Notes: generated by a model not told the origin, from the sequence alone. Shown: positions 1 through 9,731, counted from the first letter of the whole stretch. The stretch: DNA of 63,775 nucleotides, filler included, from Deltaproteobacteria bacterium (GCA_030698575.1; 14 parts of 14 records of this genome joined end to end with filler, not necessarily neighbours in it); one strand, 5' to 3'. Program-made: numbers and translations.

Positions 1-1
1 C

Positions 2-811
2 TGGACGATGGAAAAGAAACGCGACCAGATCATTCAGGCAATGGGCGCAGTCGAGGCATCCGGCACGTACTACAACTACGGCGGCACAGAAGGCGCCTAT
101 GGCTCAACTGCAGCTGCAGCTGGGAACATGGATACCTGGAACACCAACAACCAGGATCGCGTGCTGTACGGCAACGCTAAGTCGAACAACAGCTCTGGCG
201 ACCACACCACCTCGCTCGGCACAATCGACACCACGAACGACAAGCTGACCGCCGGGCACATCACGCTGCTGAAGCGCATGGCCGGTCTGGCGCGTCCGAA
301 CATCCGGCCGGTGATGCTCAAAGGCGATGTCCCGTGGTATGTGTTCTTTGTCGGCTCGCTCGGCTTCCGCGACATTTCGGCGGATTCCACGATTGTGCAG
401 GCAAACCGCGAAGCGCGCGACCGTGGCGTCGACAACCCGATCTTCGCCGGCGGTGATCTGATCTATGACGGCGTGATCATCAAGGAGGTGCCGGAAATAG
501 ACATTTTCATCGATGGCGACGGCTCCGGGTCTCCGTGGGACGGCGTATGGGGTGCGAACGCTGCGTCGGCTGATGGCCTGGACAACGGCGGCGACACTGC
601 CAGCCGCATCGGCATCGGGTTCTTTACCGGCGCGCAGGCTGTTGGCTTCGGCATCGGACGGATGGCCTCGTTCAAGCGCCGCAAAGAGGACGACTACGAG
701 CACCTGAGCGGCGTCGGCGTATCGATGAAACACGACGTCAAGAAGCTCTTCTACAACAGCAAGCAGCACGGCATGGTGACGTCTTTCCATTCCGCCGCTG
801 CTGACGCATAA
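2..811 (+). CDS. Major capsid protein, DUF4043/N4-type (5' truncated)
   Basis: Motifs IRPV..YVFFV, AREARDRGVDNPIFAGGDLIYDGVIIKE, GAQAVG, EDDYE..GVGV and KQHGMVT are typical of this capsid family. The frame is open to the window edge. Confidence 0.8.
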   Translation, partial: WTMEKKRDQIIQAMGAVEASGTYYNYGGTEGAYGSTAAAAGNMDTWNTNNQDRVLYGNAKSNNSSGDHTTSLGTIDTTNDKLTAGHITLLKRMAGLARPNIRPVMLKGDVPWYVFFVGSLGFRDISADSTIVQANREARDRGVDNPIFAGGDLIYDGVIIKEVPEIDIFIDGDGSGSPWDGVWGANAASADGLDNGGDTASRIGIGFFTGAQAVGFGIGRMASFKRRKEDDYEHLSGVGVSMKHDVKKLFYNSKQHGMVTSFHSAAADA

Positions 812-822
812 GAGGTGACCTG

Positions 823-1674
823 ATGGCTTCCAATCGGCCTTTACCCGGTGACTTGACCGTCACCGGGATGGATCAGGCATCCATGTACGCATGGATGGCG
901 AACGTCACGGATTTGGTCAACGAATTGCAGACCGATCATGCGGCGAACAAACTCGTGGTGGATGAGCTGGCAACGGATCACGCCACTACGAAAGCCACTG
1001 TTGATGCGGCGCGTACCGCGATCATTGAACTATCCGATGATCACGATACAAACCAGACGCACATGACCAATCTCAAAACCTTGGTCAACAACATGCGCAC
1101 CTACCTGACCGGGGACCGTCTCTTTTCGGGGAATCCGGCGCTTCTCATCGATACCAATTTCGATGTCAAGACCGGAGGGGCGTGCGTGGTGTCAATCGAC
1201 GGGGTGCTGGCAACCGTCGCCGCAAGCGCCAACGCCGACACCGGGACGACAAAGACAATTCCCGCTGCGCAGTGGGGCGTGTTTTTGGTGACCGGAGCGG
1301 CGAACGGCGCATTGACTGCGACGTGGGCTGCGGCTAGCGCCGGGTACGCAAATGAGGCGGCTGCAATTGCTGCCCTGCCTGCGGCTCCCGCGTCTGGAGC
1401 GCCTGTCGGCTATGTCACGGTGCAGGCTCACGCCACCGCCGGATTCACGGCGGGCACGGATGCGCTTCAAACTGGAACAGGCGGCAGCATTTCGCCGGAT
1501 ACCAATTACTACAACCTTGCTGATGCTCTTAGCACCATCACGGCTACGGTATCCACGTCGTCCGAGTCCGCTTTGGGCGCTGCTGATCCTGGCGCCGGCC
1601 CGGCCACGTTGTCGAACACCACCGGTCCCGCGACGCTGGCCAACAGCACCGCACTCACTCTTTTACGTTCTTAG
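823..1674 (+). CDS. Putative head fibre/decoration protein
   Basis: Ala/Thr/Gly-rich with an N-terminal coiled coil carrying repeated EL-x-(T/D)DH. Lies directly after the capsid gene with a GAGG RBS. Confidence 0.5.
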   Translation: MASNRPLPGDLTVTGMDQASMYAWMANVTDLVNELQTDHAANKLVVDELATDHATTKATVDAARTAIIELSDDHDTNQTHMTNLKTLVNNMRTYLTGDRLFSGNPALLIDTNFDVKTGGACVVSIDGVLATVAASANADTGTTKTIPAAQWGVFLVTGAANGALTATWAAASAGYANEAAAIAALPAAPASGAPVGYVTVQAHATAGFTAGTDALQTGTGGSISPDTNYYNLADALSTITATVSTSSESALGAADPGAGPATLSNTTGPATLANSTALTLLRS

Positions 1675-1683
1675 GAGGCCATC

Positions 1684-2181
1684 ATGGCTGATCTGACTTA
1701 TTCGCAAAAAGCAACTGAACGGCATAGCAGCACTGGCCTGGTAACGGGCAAGGGCGACGCCAACGGCCTGAAGGTGCTTGTTTCCTCAACCGTCGAAATT
1801 CCGCCATCCGCATCCGGCGCGACAGTCAAGTTCGGGCGCATCCCGTCCAATGCTCGGCTGTCGGGTATTTCGCGGGTGTATTGGGACGATCTTACGACTA
1901 CGGGAAGTCCTACGCTGGATATTGGCCTGGCTTCGGTCAACGCCAACATCACCAGTGACCCGGACGCGCTGTCGAACGGCCACGCCGTTTCATCGGCTGA
2001 TGCCGACGGGGCGCAAGCGATTGCCGACCCGGCAGAGTTCGGGAAGCCCGCTTACCTGAACGTGAACGGTCAGACGACCGATCCGGGCGGCGAGTTGGAC
2101 GTGTACGGATCCATTGTGGACGCGGCTACGGTGACCAACACCGGGACCGTGACGCTGGAACTGTTCGGGTATCTCGACTAA
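1684..2181 (+). CDS. Putative capsid decoration/cement protein
   Basis: 165 aa beta-rich protein (FGRIPSNARL..DDL..TLDIGL) with an AGGAGG RBS, located after the capsid gene. Confidence 0.55.
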   Translation: MADLTYSQKATERHSSTGLVTGKGDANGLKVLVSSTVEIPPSASGATVKFGRIPSNARLSGISRVYWDDLTTTGSPTLDIGLASVNANITSDPDALSNGHAVSSADADGAQAIADPAEFGKPAYLNVNGQTTDPGGELDVYGSIVDAATVTNTGTVTLELFGYLD

Positions 2182-2256
2182 CCAACAATTCGGGCACGCG
2201 CTCGCCCGCGTGTCGCCGTGGAACGCGGCATTTTCTAACCCTGGCGAGAGGATCAA

Positions 2257-2772
2257 ATGCAAAACGGAGAAAGACTGCATATCGGATGCGGCAACACACG
2301 CATTGAGGGCTTTATCAACATAGACCGCCGCCGTACCGAAGCGACAGACCTGGTGGCGGAAGCGTGGGACCTGGATGTGTTCGACGACGTGAAGTATATC
2401 TACACCCGCCACATGCTTGAGCACCTGAACTGCGCCGACGCGCGGCGGGCGCTCACCGCATGGCGGCGGGCGCTGGCGGCGGACGGGATTCTTCATGTTG
2501 TTGTGCCGGACATCGCCTTTCATGCGCGTCAACTGCTCGGCCTGTCGCGCTCGGACAACGCCGACCAGGAAGCTCACGCCCTCGCCGGGTTTTACGGCTG
2601 GCAGCGGGACATGGAAAACGACGTTCACCGCTGGGGGTACACCCCGGCGAGCCTGGCCCGGTTGCTCGGCGAGCACGGTTTCGCGCCAACTGATGATGGG
2701 ATTAAGGCGTTGATCGACCGCGACACCGCGCCCTGGCACATTAATTTGTGTGCCAGGCCGGAGGCTGCATGA
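2257..2772 (+). CDS. Class I SAM-dependent methyltransferase
   Basis: RLHIGCG SAM motif, INID, HMLEHL and GILHVVVPD. Confidence 0.85.
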   Translation: MQNGERLHIGCGNTRIEGFINIDRRRTEATDLVAEAWDLDVFDDVKYIYTRHMLEHLNCADARRALTAWRRALAADGILHVVVPDIAFHARQLLGLSRSDNADQEAHALAGFYGWQRDMENDVHRWGYTPASLARLLGEHGFAPTDDGIKALIDRDTAPWHINLCARPEAA

Positions 2773-4145
2773 TTCCCGGCGAGCGCCAGGTGGCGCCCAC
2801 GCTGGACGGTATCCGGGCAGACCATACTGCGCGGTATCGGTGGGCTGCAAGGCAATTGCCAGCTGGCAGAAAGGTAATCGACTTCGCTACCGGATGCGGG
2901 TACGGATCGCGCATATTGGCCGACGCCGGCCATGCCGCGCTCGGCTTTGACATAGACGCAGAGGCCATTGAATACGCCAAGAAACACTACGGCTCCAAGC
3001 CGGGGGAGCGTGGCGCGCACTTCGGCATCGCGGACGGCAACAGCCCGGGAGAATTGCTTCCGGCAGACGCCGCGGTTTGTTTCGAGACCATCGAGCACAT
3101 TGAAGACCCACGCCCGCTGCTGAAGGCGCTGGCGAAGTCTGCGCCGCTGCTGTTGGCAAGCGTGCCGAATGAGGATGTTGTCCACTGGGAACGCTCTCCA
3201 GGAGTAAAAACGCGGTTCCACTTCCGGCATTACACGAAGGGCGAGTTTGACGCCCTGCTGCGCGAATGCGGCTGGATTGTCTCGGAATGGTGGGGACAGG
3301 ACGGCACGGAGTCCGATGTCGAACGGGACATTGCCGGCCGGACGCTGATTGCGGTATGCAAGCGTGCAGAAGCGAGTCCGGCTGTAAGGCCGACGAAGAT
3401 CGCCATTGTCGGCGGGGCCCCGAGCAGCGCGCACCTGGCCCCATATGACGACGCGAGCTATGAAATCTGGGTACACGGCAACCAGATCGACCGGCACGCC
3501 GGCAAGCGGGTAACGCGGATTTTCGAGATCCACGATGACCTGAGCGAGCACGGCGACCCGCTGAAGTATGCGCAGATGCTGGTGGACAAGGGCATTCCGA
3601 TGGTTGTCGGTGAGCTTTTCCCGATCAAGGCGGCGCACGTTGAGGTTTATCCGTTCGAGGCCGTGAATCGGTTCATGGGCGAGCACCTGACCAGCACGCC
3701 GGCCTACATGATGGGCTACGCGATGCTGCGCAGCGATGTGAAGGAAATCATGATCTACGGCTGCGACATGGCCGTTGACGATCACGAGTATTTCTACCAG
3801 CGTCCGGTGATGTACGCATGGATCGGGCTTGCGATTGGGCGGGGCATCAAGATCGGAATTCCAAGGGCGTCGTCGTTGTTCAAGGATCCGTACGTCGAGG
3901 GTAGGAAGTCGGGCGGCAAGCCAAAGCTCGGCCTTGGGCCGTTCAGGGAGTCGGAATTCAAGCTCCTACACACGAAGCACGGCGCGAAGATGGCAGAAAT
4001 ACAGGACCAGATTGCGAAGCTGCAGTTGACCTACGCCGCGCACAACGGCTGTCAGCAGACGTATGAAAAGCTCGGCTCGGCAGCTCGAGCGATTGAGTCC
4101 GGGCAGCACATCGAAACCCTCACACAGACGACGGTGGTGATATGA
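2769..4145 (+). CDS. Fusion of a class I SAM methyltransferase and a CstII/Maf(DUF115)-like glycosyltransferase-type domain
   Basis: ATGA overlap with the upstream stop. N-terminal half has HTARY, VIDFATGCGYGS and CFETIEH. C-terminal half (from about 3396) has KIAIVGGAPS, TSTPAYMMGYAM and KEIMIYGCDM. Confidence 0.65.
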   Translation: MIPGERQVAPTLDGIRADHTARYRWAARQLPAGRKVIDFATGCGYGSRILADAGHAALGFDIDAEAIEYAKKHYGSKPGERGAHFGIADGNSPGELLPADAAVCFETIEHIEDPRPLLKALAKSAPLLLASVPNEDVVHWERSPGVKTRFHFRHYTKGEFDALLRECGWIVSEWWGQDGTESDVERDIAGRTLIAVCKRAEASPAVRPTKIAIVGGAPSSAHLAPYDDASYEIWVHGNQIDRHAGKRVTRIFEIHDDLSEHGDPLKYAQMLVDKGIPMVVGELFPIKAAHVEVYPFEAVNRFMGEHLTSTPAYMMGYAMLRSDVKEIMIYGCDMAVDDHEYFYQRPVMYAWIGLAIGRGIKIGIPRASSLFKDPYVEGRKSGGKPKLGLGPFRESEFKLLHTKHGAKMAEIQDQIAKLQLTYAAHNGCQQTYEKLGSAARAIESGQHIETLTQTTVVI

Positions 4146-4450
4146 AATTCGAATTCATCTACAAGACTGATGTTCCAGTGATGTCCTACGGCCGCATGGT
4201 TTCGACCGGCGATATTGTCGAGCTTGAGGGGAACCTGGCCGAGAAAGCAAAGGCGCACGTCACGCATTACAGGCTGCTTACAGAGCCGCAGGACGGCGCC
4301 GCGGCGGCAACCGATGCCGAGCAGCAGGACTACGCACAGCACGGCCTCCCGACCGGATTGGACGAACTGCGCGCGGCTTATGAGGCAAAGTTCGGAAAAG
4401 CCCCGCATCACCGGAAGTCGGCTGAAACGCTGCGCGAGGAGCTTGAATAA
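4142..4450 (+). CDS. Phage hypothetical protein
   Basis: Overlaps both neighbours. C-terminal LRAAYEAKFGKAPHHRKSAETL small helical motif of the kind seen in phage head-region proteins. Confidence 0.6.
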   Translation: MKFEFIYKTDVPVMSYGRMVSTGDIVELEGNLAEKAKAHVTHYRLLTEPQDGAAAATDAEQQDYAQHGLPTGLDELRAAYEAKFGKAPHHRKSAETLREELE

Positions 4451-4650
4451 TGGCGGCTTCCCCCGGTGATTATGACGACGAAGGCGAGCCCGTCTGGACC
4501 CCAAACATTCACGGCAACACCGGGCATGCCGGCTACGTGAGTTCTGAGCGCCGCGGCGAAACAGCGGTTCAGGAGCTGCGCGAGGTCGTCGCCGAGGTCA
4601 CACGCGGGCGCATACCGGCGCCAACCAGGCGCGGGCCTGGATTTTATTAA
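4450..4650 (+). CDS. Phage hypothetical protein
   Basis: TAATG coupling with the upstream ORF; fills the operon gap. Confidence 0.5.
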   Translation: MAASPGDYDDEGEPVWTPNIHGNTGHAGYVSSERRGETAVQELREVVAEVTRGRIPAPTRRGPGFY

Positions 4651-4660
4651 AGGCTAGGCA

Positions 4661-5008
4661 ATGGCAACGAAAGCTGAACTACGCGACCGCGCTGCGAACG
4701 ACCTGGGGCTGTTGCGCCTCGGGCAATCTCTACAGGCGCAGGACGCGACGCGCATCGAGTCGGCCTATGCCGAGGTCTATGCGGACCTGAAAACGGAGGG
4801 GCTGAACGTCTGGGCGTCTACCGGGACCTGCCCGGCCGAATTGACGCCGCACGTCGCCGCGTTGATGGCAGACAACTGCCTGAACACCTACGGCGTATCG
4901 CCGGCACGGTATCAGCGGATCAAGATCGCCGCTGGCAGGGCGAAGCCTGAGATCCGCCGCTTGCTGACCCCTCGCTTTGAGTCCGTAGAAGACGCGACGG
5001 ATTACTAA
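4661..5008 (+). CDS. Head-to-tail adaptor, P22 gp4-like
   Basis: N-terminus MATKAELRDRAANDLG resembles gp4 (TKGDLVRAALRKLG). Immediately precedes the gp10-like gene. Confidence 0.6.
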   Translation: MATKAELRDRAANDLGLLRLGQSLQAQDATRIESAYAEVYADLKTEGLNVWASTGTCPAELTPHVAALMADNCLNTYGVSPARYQRIKIAAGRAKPEIRRLLTPRFESVEDATDY

Positions 5009-6403
5009 ATGCTTGTTCCCATCAATCTGACCGGCGGGACGTACAAGCATCCCTCCCTGCCGCTGAGCGCGCAAGTCACGCGCAATTTCTGGCCGCAGCA
5101 GATCGACAACCAATCTGCGCGGTCTCCCTACATCCTCGAATCGTGGCCGGGGCTGACGTTGTTTGGCGCAGGCTCTGGTGCCGACGGTGGGCAGTTCGAG
5201 CATAACGGCATCCTGTACCACGTCTGCGGAACGACCCTGTACACTGTGGCCGCGGATGGCGCGCATACCTCCCGTGGAAGCATCCTCGGTTCCGGTCCGT
5301 GCATCTTCGACGGCATCGGGCAGGACGTCGTTATCGTGCGCGGCGGCGTGGCGAAGGTTTGGGACGGGACTACGCTCTCGACCGTATCCGGCGTTGAAAC
5401 CCCGAACAGCGCGACGCACATCAACAACCAGATGCTCTACGACGGGGACGAGGGGCGCTTTTGCTCGTCGAATGTTGGGGACGCAGCGACGATCAATGCG
5501 CTCAACTACGCGACCGCGGAAAGTAGCGCCGATGACCTGTTGAGGGTGTTTTCCTTCAACGAGCAGGCCTTGCTACTGGGGAGCAAGACCATTGAACGGT
5601 GGTGGAATTCAGGCGTTGGAAATCCTCCGTTCGATCGCGTGCAGGGCGGGACCATAGAAATCGGGCTGAAGGCCATCTATTCCGTAGCGAGCAATAAGGA
5701 CTCCGTTTACCTCCTTGGGACTGACTTTCGCATCTACCGAATGTCCGAAGGCGGGGCGCTCGCAATCACCGATCGCGCCATGTCGCGCGAATTCTCAGAC
5801 TTCTCTGATGCCTCAGACGCGATTGGCTGGTGCTTCACGAAAGACGATCAGTACTTCTACCAGATCACGTTCCCGACTGCGGACAAGTCATTCGTCTACC
5901 CGGAAGGCGGGCAGTGGTTCGAGGTTTCCTCTGGCATGTCAGGATGCCGAAGCGTCGCCAACTCCTACGCCTACGCATTCGGCAAGCACCTGATCGGCGA
6001 CTATCGCAACGGCAACCTGTATGCGCTGGATGACGACGCGTTCACGGAAAACGGCGAGACGATCCGCAGGGTACGCGACACCGGGCCGCTGCACGGCGGG
6101 CTTGTTCGTGCGCCCGGGAAGACGCTTGAAATGAGTCGCTTCGAGCTGATCATGGAGACCGGCGTCGGCCTGGTTTCGGGTCAGGGCAGCGACCCGGTTG
6201 TCATGTTGTCGTTTTCCGATGATGGCGGCCGGACGTTCTGCACCGAGACCTGGGGCACGGTCGGGCAGCTCGGGGCGTATTTGTGGAAGGTGGAATGGTT
6301 CGCGCTCGGCTCGTTCATGTCGCGGATTATCCGCATCGCCATAACCGATCCGGTTAAATGCTCTATTCACTCGGCCGCTGCTGACGTTGACATAGGAATC
6401 TGA
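5009..6403 (+). CDS. Packaged DNA stabilization / tail hub protein, P22 gp10-like
   Basis: 464 aa beta-rich protein with YATAESSAD, LLGSKTIERW, LIGDYRNGNL and LSFSDDGGRTF..G.Y..KVEWFALG. Confidence 0.85.
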   Translation: MLVPINLTGGTYKHPSLPLSAQVTRNFWPQQIDNQSARSPYILESWPGLTLFGAGSGADGGQFEHNGILYHVCGTTLYTVAADGAHTSRGSILGSGPCIFDGIGQDVVIVRGGVAKVWDGTTLSTVSGVETPNSATHINNQMLYDGDEGRFCSSNVGDAATINALNYATAESSADDLLRVFSFNEQALLLGSKTIERWWNSGVGNPPFDRVQGGTIEIGLKAIYSVASNKDSVYLLGTDFRIYRMSEGGALAITDRAMSREFSDFSDASDAIGWCFTKDDQYFYQITFPTADKSFVYPEGGQWFEVSSGMSGCRSVANSYAYAFGKHLIGDYRNGNLYALDDDAFTENGETIRRVRDTGPLHGGLVRAPGKTLEMSRFELIMETGVGLVSGQGSDPVVMLSFSDDGGRTFCTETWGTVGQLGAYLWKVEWFALGSFMSRIIRIAITDPVKCSIHSAAADVDIGI

Positions 6404-6810
6404 TGATCCCGATTCAGCCTCCGCCGCCGCCAGAAAAGACCGGCAACGCTCAGGTCGACGCCTACCTGACGCGGATTTACAAGTGGGCCTACCTGCTCTG
6501 GTTCTACATGAGCGGGGAAGGCAGAGGGGACGCGGCGATCATCGATTCGTCCACCGGTGGTGCTGGCAGCAGCGCCCTGGCGGCACTTCGCATTCCCGGT
6601 CTTGATGGCGAGGATGGCGAGGACGGGCAAATGGGCCTCCCCGGCCAACAGGGGGCGCAGGGCGTCACTGGCCAGTCAATTCCCGGCCTGGATGGGCAAG
6701 ATGGCGAGGACGGTTTCGTGTTTCAGCAGCGGACCTACGGAGCGACGTTTGGGCCAGCAGCAGTCGCATCAATTACCGTGGTCGATGGTGTTGTCACGGC
6801 TATCTCATAG
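6403..6810 (+). CDS. Small collagen-like virion protein
   Basis: G-X-Y run GLDGEDGEDGQMGLPGQQGAQGVTGQS, then a second IPGLDGQDGEDG. Confidence 0.65.
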   Translation: MIPIQPPPPPEKTGNAQVDAYLTRIYKWAYLLWFYMSGEGRGDAAIIDSSTGGAGSSALAALRIPGLDGEDGEDGQMGLPGQQGAQGVTGQSIPGLDGQDGEDGFVFQQRTYGATFGPAAVASITVVDGVVTAIS

Positions 6811-6818
6811 GGAAGATC

Positions 6819-7190
6819 ATGCAAAACAAGCCTTTCAACTTCGGCCCGGTAGCGTTGACGAACACGCTGACAACGAACATTCTCAACCCGGCCATCACAT
6901 CACTTGCAGGCCCGGTTGGCTTCACGGCGACGCAGCCCTACATCCTCCTGCGCCATATCCGCATTGTGAACAAAACAGCCGGCGCCGTGACGTTTTCGCT
7001 CTGGAAGGGCGCGACTGGCGCGAATGCGGCCGGAACGGAAGTTATCGGCATCGCCAAGAGCATTCCGGCGAACGATTCCTATGATTACTACGGCCTACTC
7101 CGTTTAGACGCTGCCGATTTCCTTGTCGGCGGGGCGAGCGCAGGCACATCATTGAGCATCCAGGGCGAAGGTGAAATTGGGTTTGTGTAG
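6819..7190 (+). CDS. Phage hypothetical virion protein
   Basis: 123 aa beta-rich ORF within the operon. Confidence 0.65.
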   Translation: MQNKPFNFGPVALTNTLTTNILNPAITSLAGPVGFTATQPYILLRHIRIVNKTAGAVTFSLWKGATGANAAGTEVIGIAKSIPANDSYDYYGLLRLDAADFLVGGASAGTSLSIQGEGEIGFV

Positions 7191-7602
7191 CATCGGCGCG
7201 CCGAGCGCTGATGAAATAAAGCGCGTCCTGCTCGACCCTGAAATCTGGGAGCGCGAGACCGACGATCACTGCGGGCCGGCTTCATCGTTTCCCGGGCTAC
7301 CGGACACTGTGCGGTGTCTCGGCGGGTACGTCGAGGATGCGATTATCGGGCTTGCCATGACGCACAAGACCGAGGTCGGCACCAAGATCCATTTCGCTGT
7401 GTTGCGGCCCTACAGGGCGCACGCAAGAGCGTTCCTGATGCGTGCCCTAGAGATTCTTGGCCCGGTGTACTGCGATATCCCGGAGTGCTACCGAGCAGTC
7501 ATCAATTTTGCGCTGCATGCCGGATTCGTTGCGACCGGGCGCGCGGGGCGTTACTTGAAACACGGAATCAGCCATCAAAGGACGCGGCTATGTCGATCAT
7601 AA
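7171..7602 (+). CDS. GNAT-like protein, P22 gp14/DUF2824-like
   Basis: IHFAVLRPYR..IPECYRAVINFALHAGF motif. Sits between tail and ejection genes, as in P22. Confidence 0.6.
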   Translation: MKLGLCSIGAPSADEIKRVLLDPEIWERETDDHCGPASSFPGLPDTVRCLGGYVEDAIIGLAMTHKTEVGTKIHFAVLRPYRAHARAFLMRALEILGPVYCDIPECYRAVINFALHAGFVATGRAGRYLKHGISHQRTRLCRS

Positions 7603-8417
7603 GTGACCTGTTTGGCGGTGGAGACGCGGCTGACGCATCCAAGGAGGCCGCTGGAGTACAGTCCGCGGCAACGCAAGAGGCGACAGCGTTCCAGCGGGAA
7701 GCGCTTGCGACAACGCGGGCAGACCTGCAGCCGTTTCGTGCGGCCGGCGAGGCCGGGCTGCCGGGTCTCAGCAAGAGCGTTTCCAGCCTGTCGGATCTGG
7801 CGAACGATCCGAATAAGCAGGTCTCCCTCGTCAAGGACAATCCATTCTTCAAGCTACTCGCCGATGACGCGCAGAGCAGGCTCTTCGCCAACCAGGCGGC
7901 CAAGGGCAAGGTCGGATCAGGCGAGACCGCCAAAGCCCTGCAAAACAGCCTGCTCCTGCTTGGCCAGGACTTGCTCAATCAGGACGTGAACCGCAAAAAC
8001 ACGGCCATCAATCAGCAGTTCAACCTCGCCACGTTGGGCGCGAACGCAGCGGCGAGGCAGGGAACAGCGACGGCGAACACGGCGAGCAATATCTCAAATC
8101 TTGCAACAGAGGGCGCAAACGCTACCGCCGCCGGGATTGTCGGCGCCGCGAACGCGAAGACCGCGGCAACCAATTCGGCAATCAACACCGGAATGTCGGC
8201 CGCGGCTTTGTTCCTGTCGGATAAACGGCTGAAAACAGACATCCGCAAGCTCGGGAAGGACGACATAGGCCTGAACGTCTACGCCTTCAAGTACAAGGGC
8301 GACGACAAGCGGCGCGTCGGCCACATGGCGCAGGATGTGGAGAAGAAATTCCCCGATGCGGTGAAGACCATCCGCGATATCAAGTTCATCGATTACGGAG
8401 AACTCCATGCCAATTGA
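7590..8417 (+). CDS. DNA ejection protein (gp7-like) with C-terminal peptidase S74-type domain
   Basis: Starts MSIISDLFGG, Ala/Gln/Gly-rich body with LQPFRAAG. C-terminus has SDKRLKTDI..YAFKYK..GHMAQDVE..FPDAV..IDY. Confidence 0.75.
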   Translation: MSIISDLFGGGDAADASKEAAGVQSAATQEATAFQREALATTRADLQPFRAAGEAGLPGLSKSVSSLSDLANDPNKQVSLVKDNPFFKLLADDAQSRLFANQAAKGKVGSGETAKALQNSLLLLGQDLLNQDVNRKNTAINQQFNLATLGANAAARQGTATANTASNISNLATEGANATAAGIVGAANAKTAATNSAINTGMSAAALFLSDKRLKTDIRKLGKDDIGLNVYAFKYKGDDKRRVGHMAQDVEKKFPDAVKTIRDIKFIDYGELHAN

Positions 8418-9651
8418 TGCGCGTATTCCGCTTCAGACGACGACCATCGACACGGCGCCCGGGCTGAATGCCCTTGCCGGCGCTTTTCGATACCGCGAGC
8501 AGCAGAAAGAGCGCAAGGAGGAACGCCAGCAGGACCTCGAGCTGCGCCGGCAGGAGCTGGGAATGCGCCAGCAGGAGATGGGGCAGCGCAAGGAGGTGCT
8601 GGACATGCAGATCGCCAGCGCGAAATACACGCAGCTGGACGATCGCGAGAAGCGCCGCATGAGAAGCACCGTATTGGGCGCTGCGCAGCTTAACGGATAT
8701 TTGGAGGCCGGAGATACAGAGGGCGCCGCGAGCTTCCTGCGGACCCGCAAAGGGCAGATCGAGCAGGCCAAGGCTATCGATCCGACAATGGACTCAAACG
8801 AGACCGACCAGGCCCTGCAAATGCTCCAATCAGGGAATATCGACCAGCTCAAGAAAACGACGCAGAGCGCCATCAAGCTCGGGCAGGATTTGAAGATTCT
8901 GGACAAGCCCGAAAAGATAGACTCGTTCGCGCCGGTGTACGGGCCGAAGGGTGAGGTCGTCGCGCAGCGCAATGTGAAAACAGGGGAAGTCAAAGCGTCC
9001 CCGCTCGCGCCGGAGAAGTCAAAGCTGATGTCGCCGGAAGAACTGCAGCAGAAAATGAGCATAGCCGCGGCCGGCAAGCCGAGCGTCACTGTCAAAGTGG
9101 ACGCCAAGATGGGCGAGAGTTTCGCCAAGGAAATCGGGCCGATGATGACCGAATCCAGGTCGGCGGCTCAGGGCGCATTGCAGGCTATCGACACAGTGAA
9201 GCGTATCCGCGGAGCCATTGAGGGCGGGAACGTATCGCTTGGCCCGACCGCAACGCTGCGGCAGAACCTGAATCAATTCGGGCAGGTATTGGGCGTTACC
9301 GGAGAGACCACGGAAGAAAAGCTAGTGAATACCCGCAACGTCATCCGTGGACTGGCTCAATTGGCGATTTCGGCTCGGAAGCAACTGAAAGGGCAGGGCC
9401 AAGTGTCCGACTACGAGGGCAAGTTGATTCAACGCGGTGAGGCCGGCGAAGTCGGAGACTTCACCATGCCGGAACTGAAAGACTTCATCGGCGTGACTGA
9501 ACAAATGGCTGGCAAGGTCGTGAAAGAGCACAAACGGACCCTGGATGTGATGCGCTCTGACCCAAGCCTTGAACGATTTGTTCCGTTTTACGGTGTTGGC
9601 GAAGACGCGGAAGAGCTGACTGTCGGCAGGTTCAAGGTCAAGGTCAAATAA
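8407..9651 (+). CDS. DNA ejection/transfer protein (gp20-like position)
   Basis: 414 aa helical, Gln-rich N-terminus, late GQVSDYE motif. Follows the gp7-like gene. Confidence 0.6.
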   Translation: MPIDARIPLQTTTIDTAPGLNALAGAFRYREQQKERKEERQQDLELRRQELGMRQQEMGQRKEVLDMQIASAKYTQLDDREKRRMRSTVLGAAQLNGYLEAGDTEGAASFLRTRKGQIEQAKAIDPTMDSNETDQALQMLQSGNIDQLKKTTQSAIKLGQDLKILDKPEKIDSFAPVYGPKGEVVAQRNVKTGEVKASPLAPEKSKLMSPEELQQKMSIAAAGKPSVTVKVDAKMGESFAKEIGPMMTESRSAAQGALQAIDTVKRIRGAIEGGNVSLGPTATLRQNLNQFGQVLGVTGETTEEKLVNTRNVIRGLAQLAISARKQLKGQGQVSDYEGKLIQRGEAGEVGDFTMPELKDFIGVTEQMAGKVVKEHKRTLDVMRSDPSLERFVPFYGVGEDAEELTVGRFKVKVK

Positions 9652-9731
9652 TGGCCGAGTACGTTGTCACTGACCCGGCGAGCGGCCGGGAAGTTACCCT
9701 CACCGGGGACTCGCCGCCGAACGAGCAGGAG
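9651..9731 (+). CDS. Start of next ejection protein (truncated by contig end)
   Basis: TAATG coupling; translates MAEYVVTDPASGREVTLTGDSPPNEQE. Confidence 0.5.

Follow-up and report, generated by a model that had tools for sequence, protein, structure and literature searches.

The DNA analysed here (the window, 63,775 nucleotides) joins short contigs of a binned deltaproteobacterial genome, and the cassette under study lies on one of them, contig C455 (window 1-9731, 9731 nt); the remaining window consists of other contigs of the same bin. C455 carries a podovirus-type (P22-like) virion module, which runs from capsid, accessory and cement genes through the cassette, small open reading frames (ORFs), an adaptor and the head-closure gene Hc3 to an ejection gene (Table 1). 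The initial annotation described two ATGA-coupled genes placed between the capsid and decoration genes and the head-tail adaptor, and this is the arrangement found, with ORFs at 2257-2772 and 2769-4145 overlapping at 2769-2772. The first gene encodes a methyltransferase (MT1), and the second a 458-aa protein in which a further methyltransferase (MT2) is fused to a glycosyltransferase-like domain (GTL). A second ATGA overlap, at 4142-4145, leads from the fusion gene into a 102-aa ORF.

Table 1. Features of the virion module around the cassette (window positions)
Feature	Position	Strand	Evidence
Major capsid protein gene, 3' part (5' part cut by contig start); possible acceptor	2..811	+	PF13252 E 2e-25; phrog_334 E 2e-29
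Accessory gene (283 aa) flanked by the capsid and cement genes; putative acceptor	823..1674	+	21% Ser+Thr
Capsid cement (decoration) protein, 165 aa, jelly-roll fold	1684..2181	+	Model with predicted local distance difference test (pLDDT) 86; structure matches
Short terminator-like hairpin ahead of cassette	2215..2229	+	Weak, consensus match only
MT1, class I S-adenosylmethionine (SAM)-dependent methyltransferase, 171 aa	2257..2772	+	PF13489 E 3e-7
MT2, N-terminal class I methyltransferase domain of 458-aa fusion protein	2769..3383	+	PF13489 E 1e-11
GTL domain, residues 209-373, Cst/Maf-type Rossmann fold; candidate cytidine monophosphate (CMP)-ulosonic-acid transferase	3393..3887	+	Fold, CstII alignment, conservation
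Long C-terminal helix, coiled-coil-like, residues 394-443	3948..4097	+	DSSP H186-235 of model
102-aa gene, ATGA-coupled to fusion gene	4142..4450	+	phrog_590, unknown function
115-aa presumed head-tail adaptor and head-closure Hc3, right border of slot	4661..6403	+	phrog_578 E 9e-76 (Hc3); synteny

Both methyltransferases pass the 27-bit cut-off of Pfam Methyltransf_23 (PF13489), MT1 with 30.6 bits and MT2 with 44.8 bits (E 8e-11 for the whole fusion protein), both have a glycine-rich motif I, and every class I SAM motif that had been quoted for them is present in the translations. DNA-methyltransferase motifs are absent from both, as had been claimed: neither protein contains [DNS]PP[YFW], PC[QN] or ENV, and no DNA-methylase Pfam family matches at E up to 0.1. 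None of the substrate-specific family models in Pfam and NCBIfam matches MT1 or MT2. The closest solved relatives of MT2 are small-molecule O-methyltransferases, for example UbiG (weak, E 6e-4), and MT1, for which 75 homologs were found, yields weak N-methyltransferase matches when its profile is compared with the PDB (phosphoethanolamine N-methyltransferase, E 0.0015). MT2 may also resemble the mycobacterial sugar O-methyltransferase Rv3030. The fusion is of no rare length, since MT2 is matched at a template-modelling (TM) score of 0.93 by an Atlas cluster whose 105 proteins, 98% of them viral, are about 442 aa long.

GTL (residues 209-458) belongs to no Pfam, PHROG or NCBIfam family, no Pfam model matches the domain at E up to 1, and a phmmer search of the PDB with the single domain gives no match at E up to 10. 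Its model (pLDDT 94, predicted TM score 0.81) consists of a Rossmann-like domain (model residues 1-165) and a 50-residue helix, which corresponds to the coiled coil previously placed after this domain. The helix is typical of the GTL subfamily of the window and is missing from the subfamily of loci L165-L170. When the model was compared against 48,161 chains, the top match was Maf (5mu5; Z 11.9, root-mean-square deviation (rmsd) 2.7, 153 residues aligned to the central domain, residues 273-499), and Cst-I (Z 10.8, rmsd 3.1, 149 aligned) scored close to it, with SteA at Z 9.2 and GT29 sialyltransferases and thiamine pyrophosphokinases (TPKs) lower, at 6.4-7.6; in a second comparison CstII reached Z 10.9 (rmsd 3.2, 152 aligned). 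Structure comparison thus recovered the resemblance to CstII and Maf that had been read from the sequence, and for the predicted model we regard the fold class as secure. Both GTL family profiles rank sialyltransferases first in the PDB, weakly (E 0.092 and 0.027), and neither TPK nor the pterin pyrophosphokinase HPPK appears among the matches shown.

The family is large: the GTL profile, run against 1.84 billion representatives, retrieves 4346 clusters (50% identity) with an E cut-off of 0.001 and 2771 with one of 1e-10, and the Atlas clusters nearest to GTL are 94-100% viral. Each of the 120 top-ranking homologs listed stands alone, with a length of 201-296 aa, in a search that covers only proteins of 105-335 aa. 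Residues 132-163 of CstII align with approximately 309-342 of GTL, which places D333 on Asp154 and E340-Y341 on Ser161-Tyr162. G215, W234, F252, H255, P295, G331, E340, Y341 and Q344 are near-invariant; over 115 diverse members H255 is kept in 98%, G331 in 100%, E340 in 98%, Y341 in 94%, Q344 in 97% and D333 in 75%, while two other subfamilies carry Asp at position 255. Maf has an essential acid pair (E324/D415 in 5mu5) and a conserved Ser, for which spacing suggests H255, S309 and D333 as candidate counterparts; Maf sequences for comparison were sought in genomes of relatives of the bin and found in 0/3. GTL most probably works like Maf, without belonging to Maf or to GT42.

The position of GTL was surveyed in the close loci L001-L037 (37, of which two share a contig) and in 44 distant loci that were not dereplicated. 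GTL has a cement gene within the two genes ahead of it in 35 of the 37 close loci, and the other two contigs end there; in 30 of the 44 distant loci one of the four genes before GTL is a recognised capsid gene, and three are unassigned, so that the linkage of GTL to structural genes, which the initial annotation had made a check of its proposal, is borne out. The close-family GTL profile found only three loci in 185,579 species genomes, all of them the same phage module in contigs of metagenome-assembled genomes, and therefore no host can be assigned.

To avoid selection on GTL itself, 80 loci were fetched by their cement protein; ten whose slot was truncated, ambiguous or uncalled were dropped (L085, L101, L111, L132, L134, L135, L140, L143, L151, L153), and with the window added and dereplication at 90% there remained 61. 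GTL is optional in this sample, being present in 45 loci and absent from 16, and the negative loci include sisters of GTL-positive phages (L093 vs L097, L123 vs L102). Among the 45 GTL-positive loci, 26 have no methyltransferase, 13 have a separate one (that of L112 called via BLAST linkage and not Pfam), two carry methyltransferase-GTL fusions and four carry GTL-methyltransferase fusions. A slot methyltransferase thus accompanies GTL in 19/45 loci and occurs in 0/16 without it (Fisher p 0.0012), or 14/30 and 0/11 at 70% dereplication (p 0.007), relatedness being uncorrected in both comparisons. The slot methyltransferases represent six families that are not linked to one another, among them Methyltransf_24 and a TylF-like one, and the 15 GTL-negative loci with scanned slot genes show no other glycosyltransferase in place of GTL. 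The conserved core of the cassette is the GTL domain, mostly as a stand-alone protein of about 250 aa, and the methyltransferases are exchangeable add-ons.

The slot holds other genes as well. A radical SAM/SPASM gene, not a methyltransferase, occupies it in L120 (4597-5523), and HNH-type genes are inserted beside GTL in L004 (6345-6830) and L013 (9127-9612). Two GTL paralogs per head region occur in L042, L048, L064 and L167, and a minimal form of GTL, 153 aa in length and lacking the long helix, stands directly before terminase in L055, L057, L058, L060-L063 and L065-L067. On another phage contig of the bin, a 460-aa gene on the minus strand (L250:835-2217; G000:C417) has a P22-type coat region on one side and an SU10-type adaptor on the other; it carries a C-terminal Methyltransf_24 domain, and its unassigned N-terminal part looks glycosyltransferase-like by eye.

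We rejected MT1 as a conserved partner within its own clade, as it is present in 0/37 close loci; in the nearest relative (L001, GTL 88% identical) it is cleanly absent behind the same leader sequence. In a sample of 85 loci fetched with the MT1 profile, five rows representing four distinct contigs (L165 = L171, L166, L167, L170) have MT1 at 56% identity or more, in each case followed by an MT2-GTL gene and behind a PF05065 capsid gene and, where called, a small unassigned gene. The other 80 loci show no GTL within the DNA available around MT1. Compared with these four cassettes, the MT2 of the window is 44-59% identical and its GTL only 29-33% over 67-120 residues, while this same GTL is about 55% identical to the methyltransferase-free GTLs of its own clade. 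The simplest account would be that a mobile pair, MT1-MT2, was grafted onto a resident GTL to give the fusion in the window. As GTL tracks the head clade and the methyltransferases travel, the sequence comparisons suggest that GTL may read the protein acceptor and the methyltransferases the sugar. Radical SAM genes flank MT1 relatives in L168, L169 and L204, and L165 (1-1230) encodes a portal protein with a C-terminal match to the anti-CBASS domain Acb1 (E 3e-40).

The decoration gene named in the initial annotation as lying upstream of the cassette encodes a jelly roll that resembles capsid-associated chains of phages (Z 13.4 to 8h89_J of Ralstonia phage GP4, 12.7 to 7eel_H of cyanophage Pam1, 9.5 to 7dou_4, the cement protein of KHP40). 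We consider this cement protein the best acceptor candidate, in particular four of its loops (residues 40-46, 68-76, 102-105 and 146-153), which share one end of the jelly roll and are predicted to face outward. Cement proteins contain 20.2% Ser+Thr in GTL-positive loci and 17.5% in GTL-negative loci (p 2e-4, uncorrected), and in the four loops the values are 34% (45 GTL-positive) and 26% (15 GTL-negative). With loop bounds taken from the cement model and a tree built without the loop columns, loop Ser+Thr is higher with GTL in 6/6 untied independent contrasts (p 0.03, one tie), and control loops at the opposite end are higher in 3/6. Capsid and adaptor show no difference in Ser/Thr between GTL-positive and GTL-negative loci (p 0.28 and 0.43). 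This covariation lends modest support to the cement protein as acceptor; a complex prediction of GTL with it scored 0.00, which is evidence neither for nor against.

The 283-aa accessory gene matches no family above cut-off in Pfam, PHROG and NCBIfam scans and is optional, with a patchy occurrence among relatives. The hairpin between the cement gene and MT1 may reduce expression of the genes downstream; positions 700-5100 hold nine such sites, compared with 4.6 +/- 2.2 in shuffled sequence. Behind the cassette, the 102-aa ORF is followed by a 66-aa ORF, and in relatives small variable genes flank GTL on both sides. The 115-aa gene is called an adaptor by its position, its PHROG match being weak and unnamed, and downstream of Hc3 lies a P22 gp7-like ejection gene, whose product has a C-terminal Peptidase_S74 chaperone domain (window 7590-8417).

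Genes for a possible donor sugar were sought in 22 GTL-bearing viral records picked for long contigs, five of them near-complete. NeuB and a cytidylyltransferase occur together in two of the 22, L069, which also has NeuC above cut-off ahead of the capsid gene, and L074, in which PseH-, PseB- and NeuB-like genes directly follow GTL. In both phages nonulosonic-acid pathway genes stand within the virion operon (L069:2398-4646, NeuB and NeuC; L074:8966-11060, with the cytidylyltransferase). GT2 genes adjoin GTL in the clusters represented by L077, L079 and L081. The bin that holds the phage contig encodes KdsB, PseB, PseC and PseG above cut-off, a second cytidylyltransferase and NeuB-family genes, although the contig has 60.5% G+C and the bin genome 65.4%, and only binning links the two. 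The bin also contains a pseudaminic-acid-like cluster with a methyltransferase, a NodU-like carbamoyltransferase and two NeuB-family genes (L251; G000:C394). Maf enzymes attach N-acetylneuraminic acid (Neu5Ac) and 3-deoxy-D-manno-octulosonic acid (Kdo) directly to Ser/Thr in E. coli (bioRxiv 2020.06.03.131540).

We propose a model that reasonably fits these observations, in which the cassette is, on balance, a late-expressed virion-glycosylation module that transfers a host CMP-ulosonic acid to virion proteins in a Maf-like manner, the sugar being methylated. GTL would first bind a CMP-activated ulosonic acid (pseudaminic, legionaminic or sialic acid, or Kdo), which is likely drawn from the host pool because most such phages lack the pathway genes. 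The predicted nucleotide site would be lined by D333, E340 and Y341, with H255 as the candidate base. If GTL does bind such a donor, it would then quite likely link the sugar, in the cytoplasm and in the manner of Maf acting on flagellin, to Ser/Thr of outer virion proteins, with the cement loops as the preferred candidate sites. MT1 and MT2 probably methylate the sugar and not the protein, since methyltransferases move among unrelated capsids and GTL stays with its head clade. The result would likely be a charged, variable coat that alters adsorption, aggregation or resistance to proteases and grazers. The initial annotation had the cassette add a methylated glycan to the capsid or the host surface. 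Of that proposal the Cst/Maf fold, the linkage to structural genes and the non-DNA type of the methyltransferases are supported, but the methyltransferases proved exchangeable and GTL the conserved element; as to the target, coupling within the head operon, the conserved position and the Ser/Thr shift of the cement protein favour the virion over the host surface. Findings that would speak against any such role, namely lack of a glycosyltransferase-like fold, of linkage to structural genes, or enzymes acting on DNA or RNA only, were not made, nucleic-acid substrates being judged by motif only.

Several observations weigh against this model. No GTL family member convincingly passes a Cst or Maf Pfam model (best E 0.017-0.028): CST-I (PF06002) gives weak matches in 13/117 close members (best E 0.028), 2/115 diverse members (best E 0.017) and not in the window protein; PF01973 (Maf) does not match the window GTL, and profile comparison with a phage PF01973 protein gives a probability of 2%. 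The alignment shows no aromatic counterpart of CstII Tyr156. In structure comparison archaeal HPPK reaches Z 10.1 (9.9 in a first comparison) and thiamine pyrophosphokinase 9.5, and the two best Foldseek E-values for GTL belong to TPKs. Eleven of the 44 distant homologs precede terminase, and two (L044, L079) are near an N6/N4 DNA methylase. The 26 of 45 GTL loci that lack a methyltransferase mean that methylation is not essential. NeuB or a cytidylyltransferase was found in 0/5 near-complete records, and, should the donor be a CMP-ulosonate, most of these phages would therefore have to draw it from the host. The cement loops were chosen after per-column counts were known; on a capsid-based tree (42 loci) the Ser/Thr contrast is 4/5 and not significant (p 0.375), and Hc3 shifts likewise, though less (16.2% vs 14.4%, p 0.007).

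The methyltransferases might instead act on residues of virion proteins, or on an unrelated metabolite, in a virion that GTL does modify. The weak N-methyltransferase matches of MT1 and the silence of substrate-specific models fit this, as does a host enzyme reported (PMC13445384) to methylate a phage tail protein; yet slot methyltransferases never occur without GTL, they are fused to it in both orders, and they are conserved across unrelated capsid types among which GTL is only about 30% identical, and we consider this explanation unlikely. A little harder to credit is a role at the host surface, where the cassette would alter lipopolysaccharide, capsule, flagellin or pilin so as to exclude superinfection or mask a receptor. 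The enzymes of like fold do have surface targets, lipooligosaccharide for Cst and flagellin for Maf; distant MT1 relatives adjoin capsule-synthesis genes in L182 and L212, and temperate phages are reported to alter host serotype through glycosyltransferases (PMC12619734). The genes are, however, translationally coupled within the head operon and keep their place across unrelated head types, no sigma-70-like promoter was found upstream of them in a consensus scan, and the Ser/Thr shift lies in the cement protein.

The fold alone does not suffice to call GTL a glycosyltransferase because thiamine and pterin pyrophosphokinases have the same one, and GTL could be a pyrophosphokinase-like or other small-molecule transferase (MptE/TPK type) in a cassette that makes a metabolite. 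In addition to the structure and Foldseek matches above, the nearest named Atlas cluster, a lead only, has PF01973 in 17% of its members (score 0.81). MptE-type HPPK, TPK and SteA share the Rossmann variant (Z 8.8-10.1), but with 121-136 residues aligned as opposed to 149-155 for the higher-scoring Maf and Cst, with no Pfam, NCBIfam or sequence-profile signal, and the neighbours of GTL are sugar genes and not cofactor genes. The preference for a glycosyltransferase comes from small score margins plus context, and we regard a pyrophosphokinase-like role as very unlikely. Slightly less credible still is a catalytically dead or structural GTL, a sugar-binding head appendage on a coiled coil, for which its place among structural genes and its terminal helix would speak: GTL is absent from 16/61 relatives, sisters of GTL-positive phages among them, 115 diverse sequences keep the polar residues of the predicted donor site at 94-98%, and GTL is fused to enzymes. 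Least probable of all is hypermodification of phage DNA or RNA. Hypermodification of DNA is reported for virus-encoded glycosyltransferases with methyltransferases (bioRxiv 2023.12.21.572611), and such a role would suit the homologs near terminase or DNA methylase and a weak 'DNA methyltransferase' PHROG match in the SAM-binding part of the homolog in L167 (E 2e-4), but it is opposed by the lack of DNA-methyltransferase motifs and Pfam families, the late structural location and six interchangeable methyltransferase families of small-molecule type.

The proposed virion glycosylation can be set beside known systems. Maf (Magnetospirillum magneticum, 5mu5; GkMaf and CbMaf, bioRxiv 2020.06.03.131540) has a Cst-like modified GT-A central domain and the chemistry proposed for GTL, a cytoplasmic transfer from a CMP-ulosonate to Ser/Thr residues of a surface protein that assembles itself. 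It is a 632-residue multi-domain protein, 12% identical to GTL, in a flagellar glycosylation locus and acts on flagellin, whereas GTL is a 165-residue catalytic-type domain with one long helix, in a phage head operon and paired with methyltransferases. The GT42 enzymes CstII and Cst-I (Campylobacter jejuni) and a Pasteurella enzyme (9c08) share the fold (Z 10.6-10.9) at 12-17% identity, and use a glycan acceptor where GTL is predicted to use, probably, a protein. The aligned span of GTL is about 55 residues shorter (1-165 vs 2-220), and no histidine was mapped onto the catalytic His188 of CstII, an enzyme that also has a lid subdomain.

Virion glycosylation of tailed phages is documented, in the literature accessible here, for mycobacteriophages, including the F1 phage Che8 in the work of Freeman et al. 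2023 (as cited in PMC11600133, PMC11256854, PMC12619734 and PMC12691614), and in cluster O phages an O-methyltransferase gene followed by three glycosyltransferase genes is said to modify capsid and tail tube (PMC11600133). As in the window cassette, methyltransferase and glycosyltransferase genes of the phage itself stand in tandem there; the window cassette has just one enzyme with the Cst/Maf fold, and this occurs in a P22-like podovirus and several other head types. No mycobacteriophage is among the GTL matches in 50,697 GenBank phage records, which yielded one homolog, in the isolated Microcystis phage Mvi-Yong1342-1, as a stand-alone 267-aa gene before small terminase (L160:8902-9705; PP496355.1, XAN61349.1). 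The protein is annotated 'type 11 methyltransferase' but has no methyltransferase match, the label having probably spread from a fusion protein; another gene of this phage, about 8 kb away, bears the label 'sugar O-methyltransferase'. Among top-ranked literature results, with most subscription journals outside coverage, no publication on phage head operons that encode Cst/Maf-fold enzymes was found. The enzyme family is one without a family model, and phage virion glycosylation itself is of an already known kind.

A wider version of this model, which we offer tentatively and at somewhat less than even odds, is that a very large phage enzyme family places host pseudaminic acid, Kdo or sialic acid, O-linked in the style of flagellin, directly on the outer loops of cement proteins, and that a slot open to at least six methyltransferase families diversifies the coat of environmental phages into a variable 'capsular serotype'. 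If the glycosylation model holds, it would constitute a second, chemically different route of virion glycosylation, based on acidic ulosonic sugars and a Maf-like enzyme and common in uncultured phages, which would span podovirus-type and other heads, with consequences for the charge of the particle, its adsorption, its persistence in the environment and its recognition by immune systems. GTL is small and Maf accepts Kdo in laboratory E. coli, which opens the claim to simple co-expression, and a compact ulosonyltransferase for protein Ser/Thr would be a useful tool for glyco-engineering.

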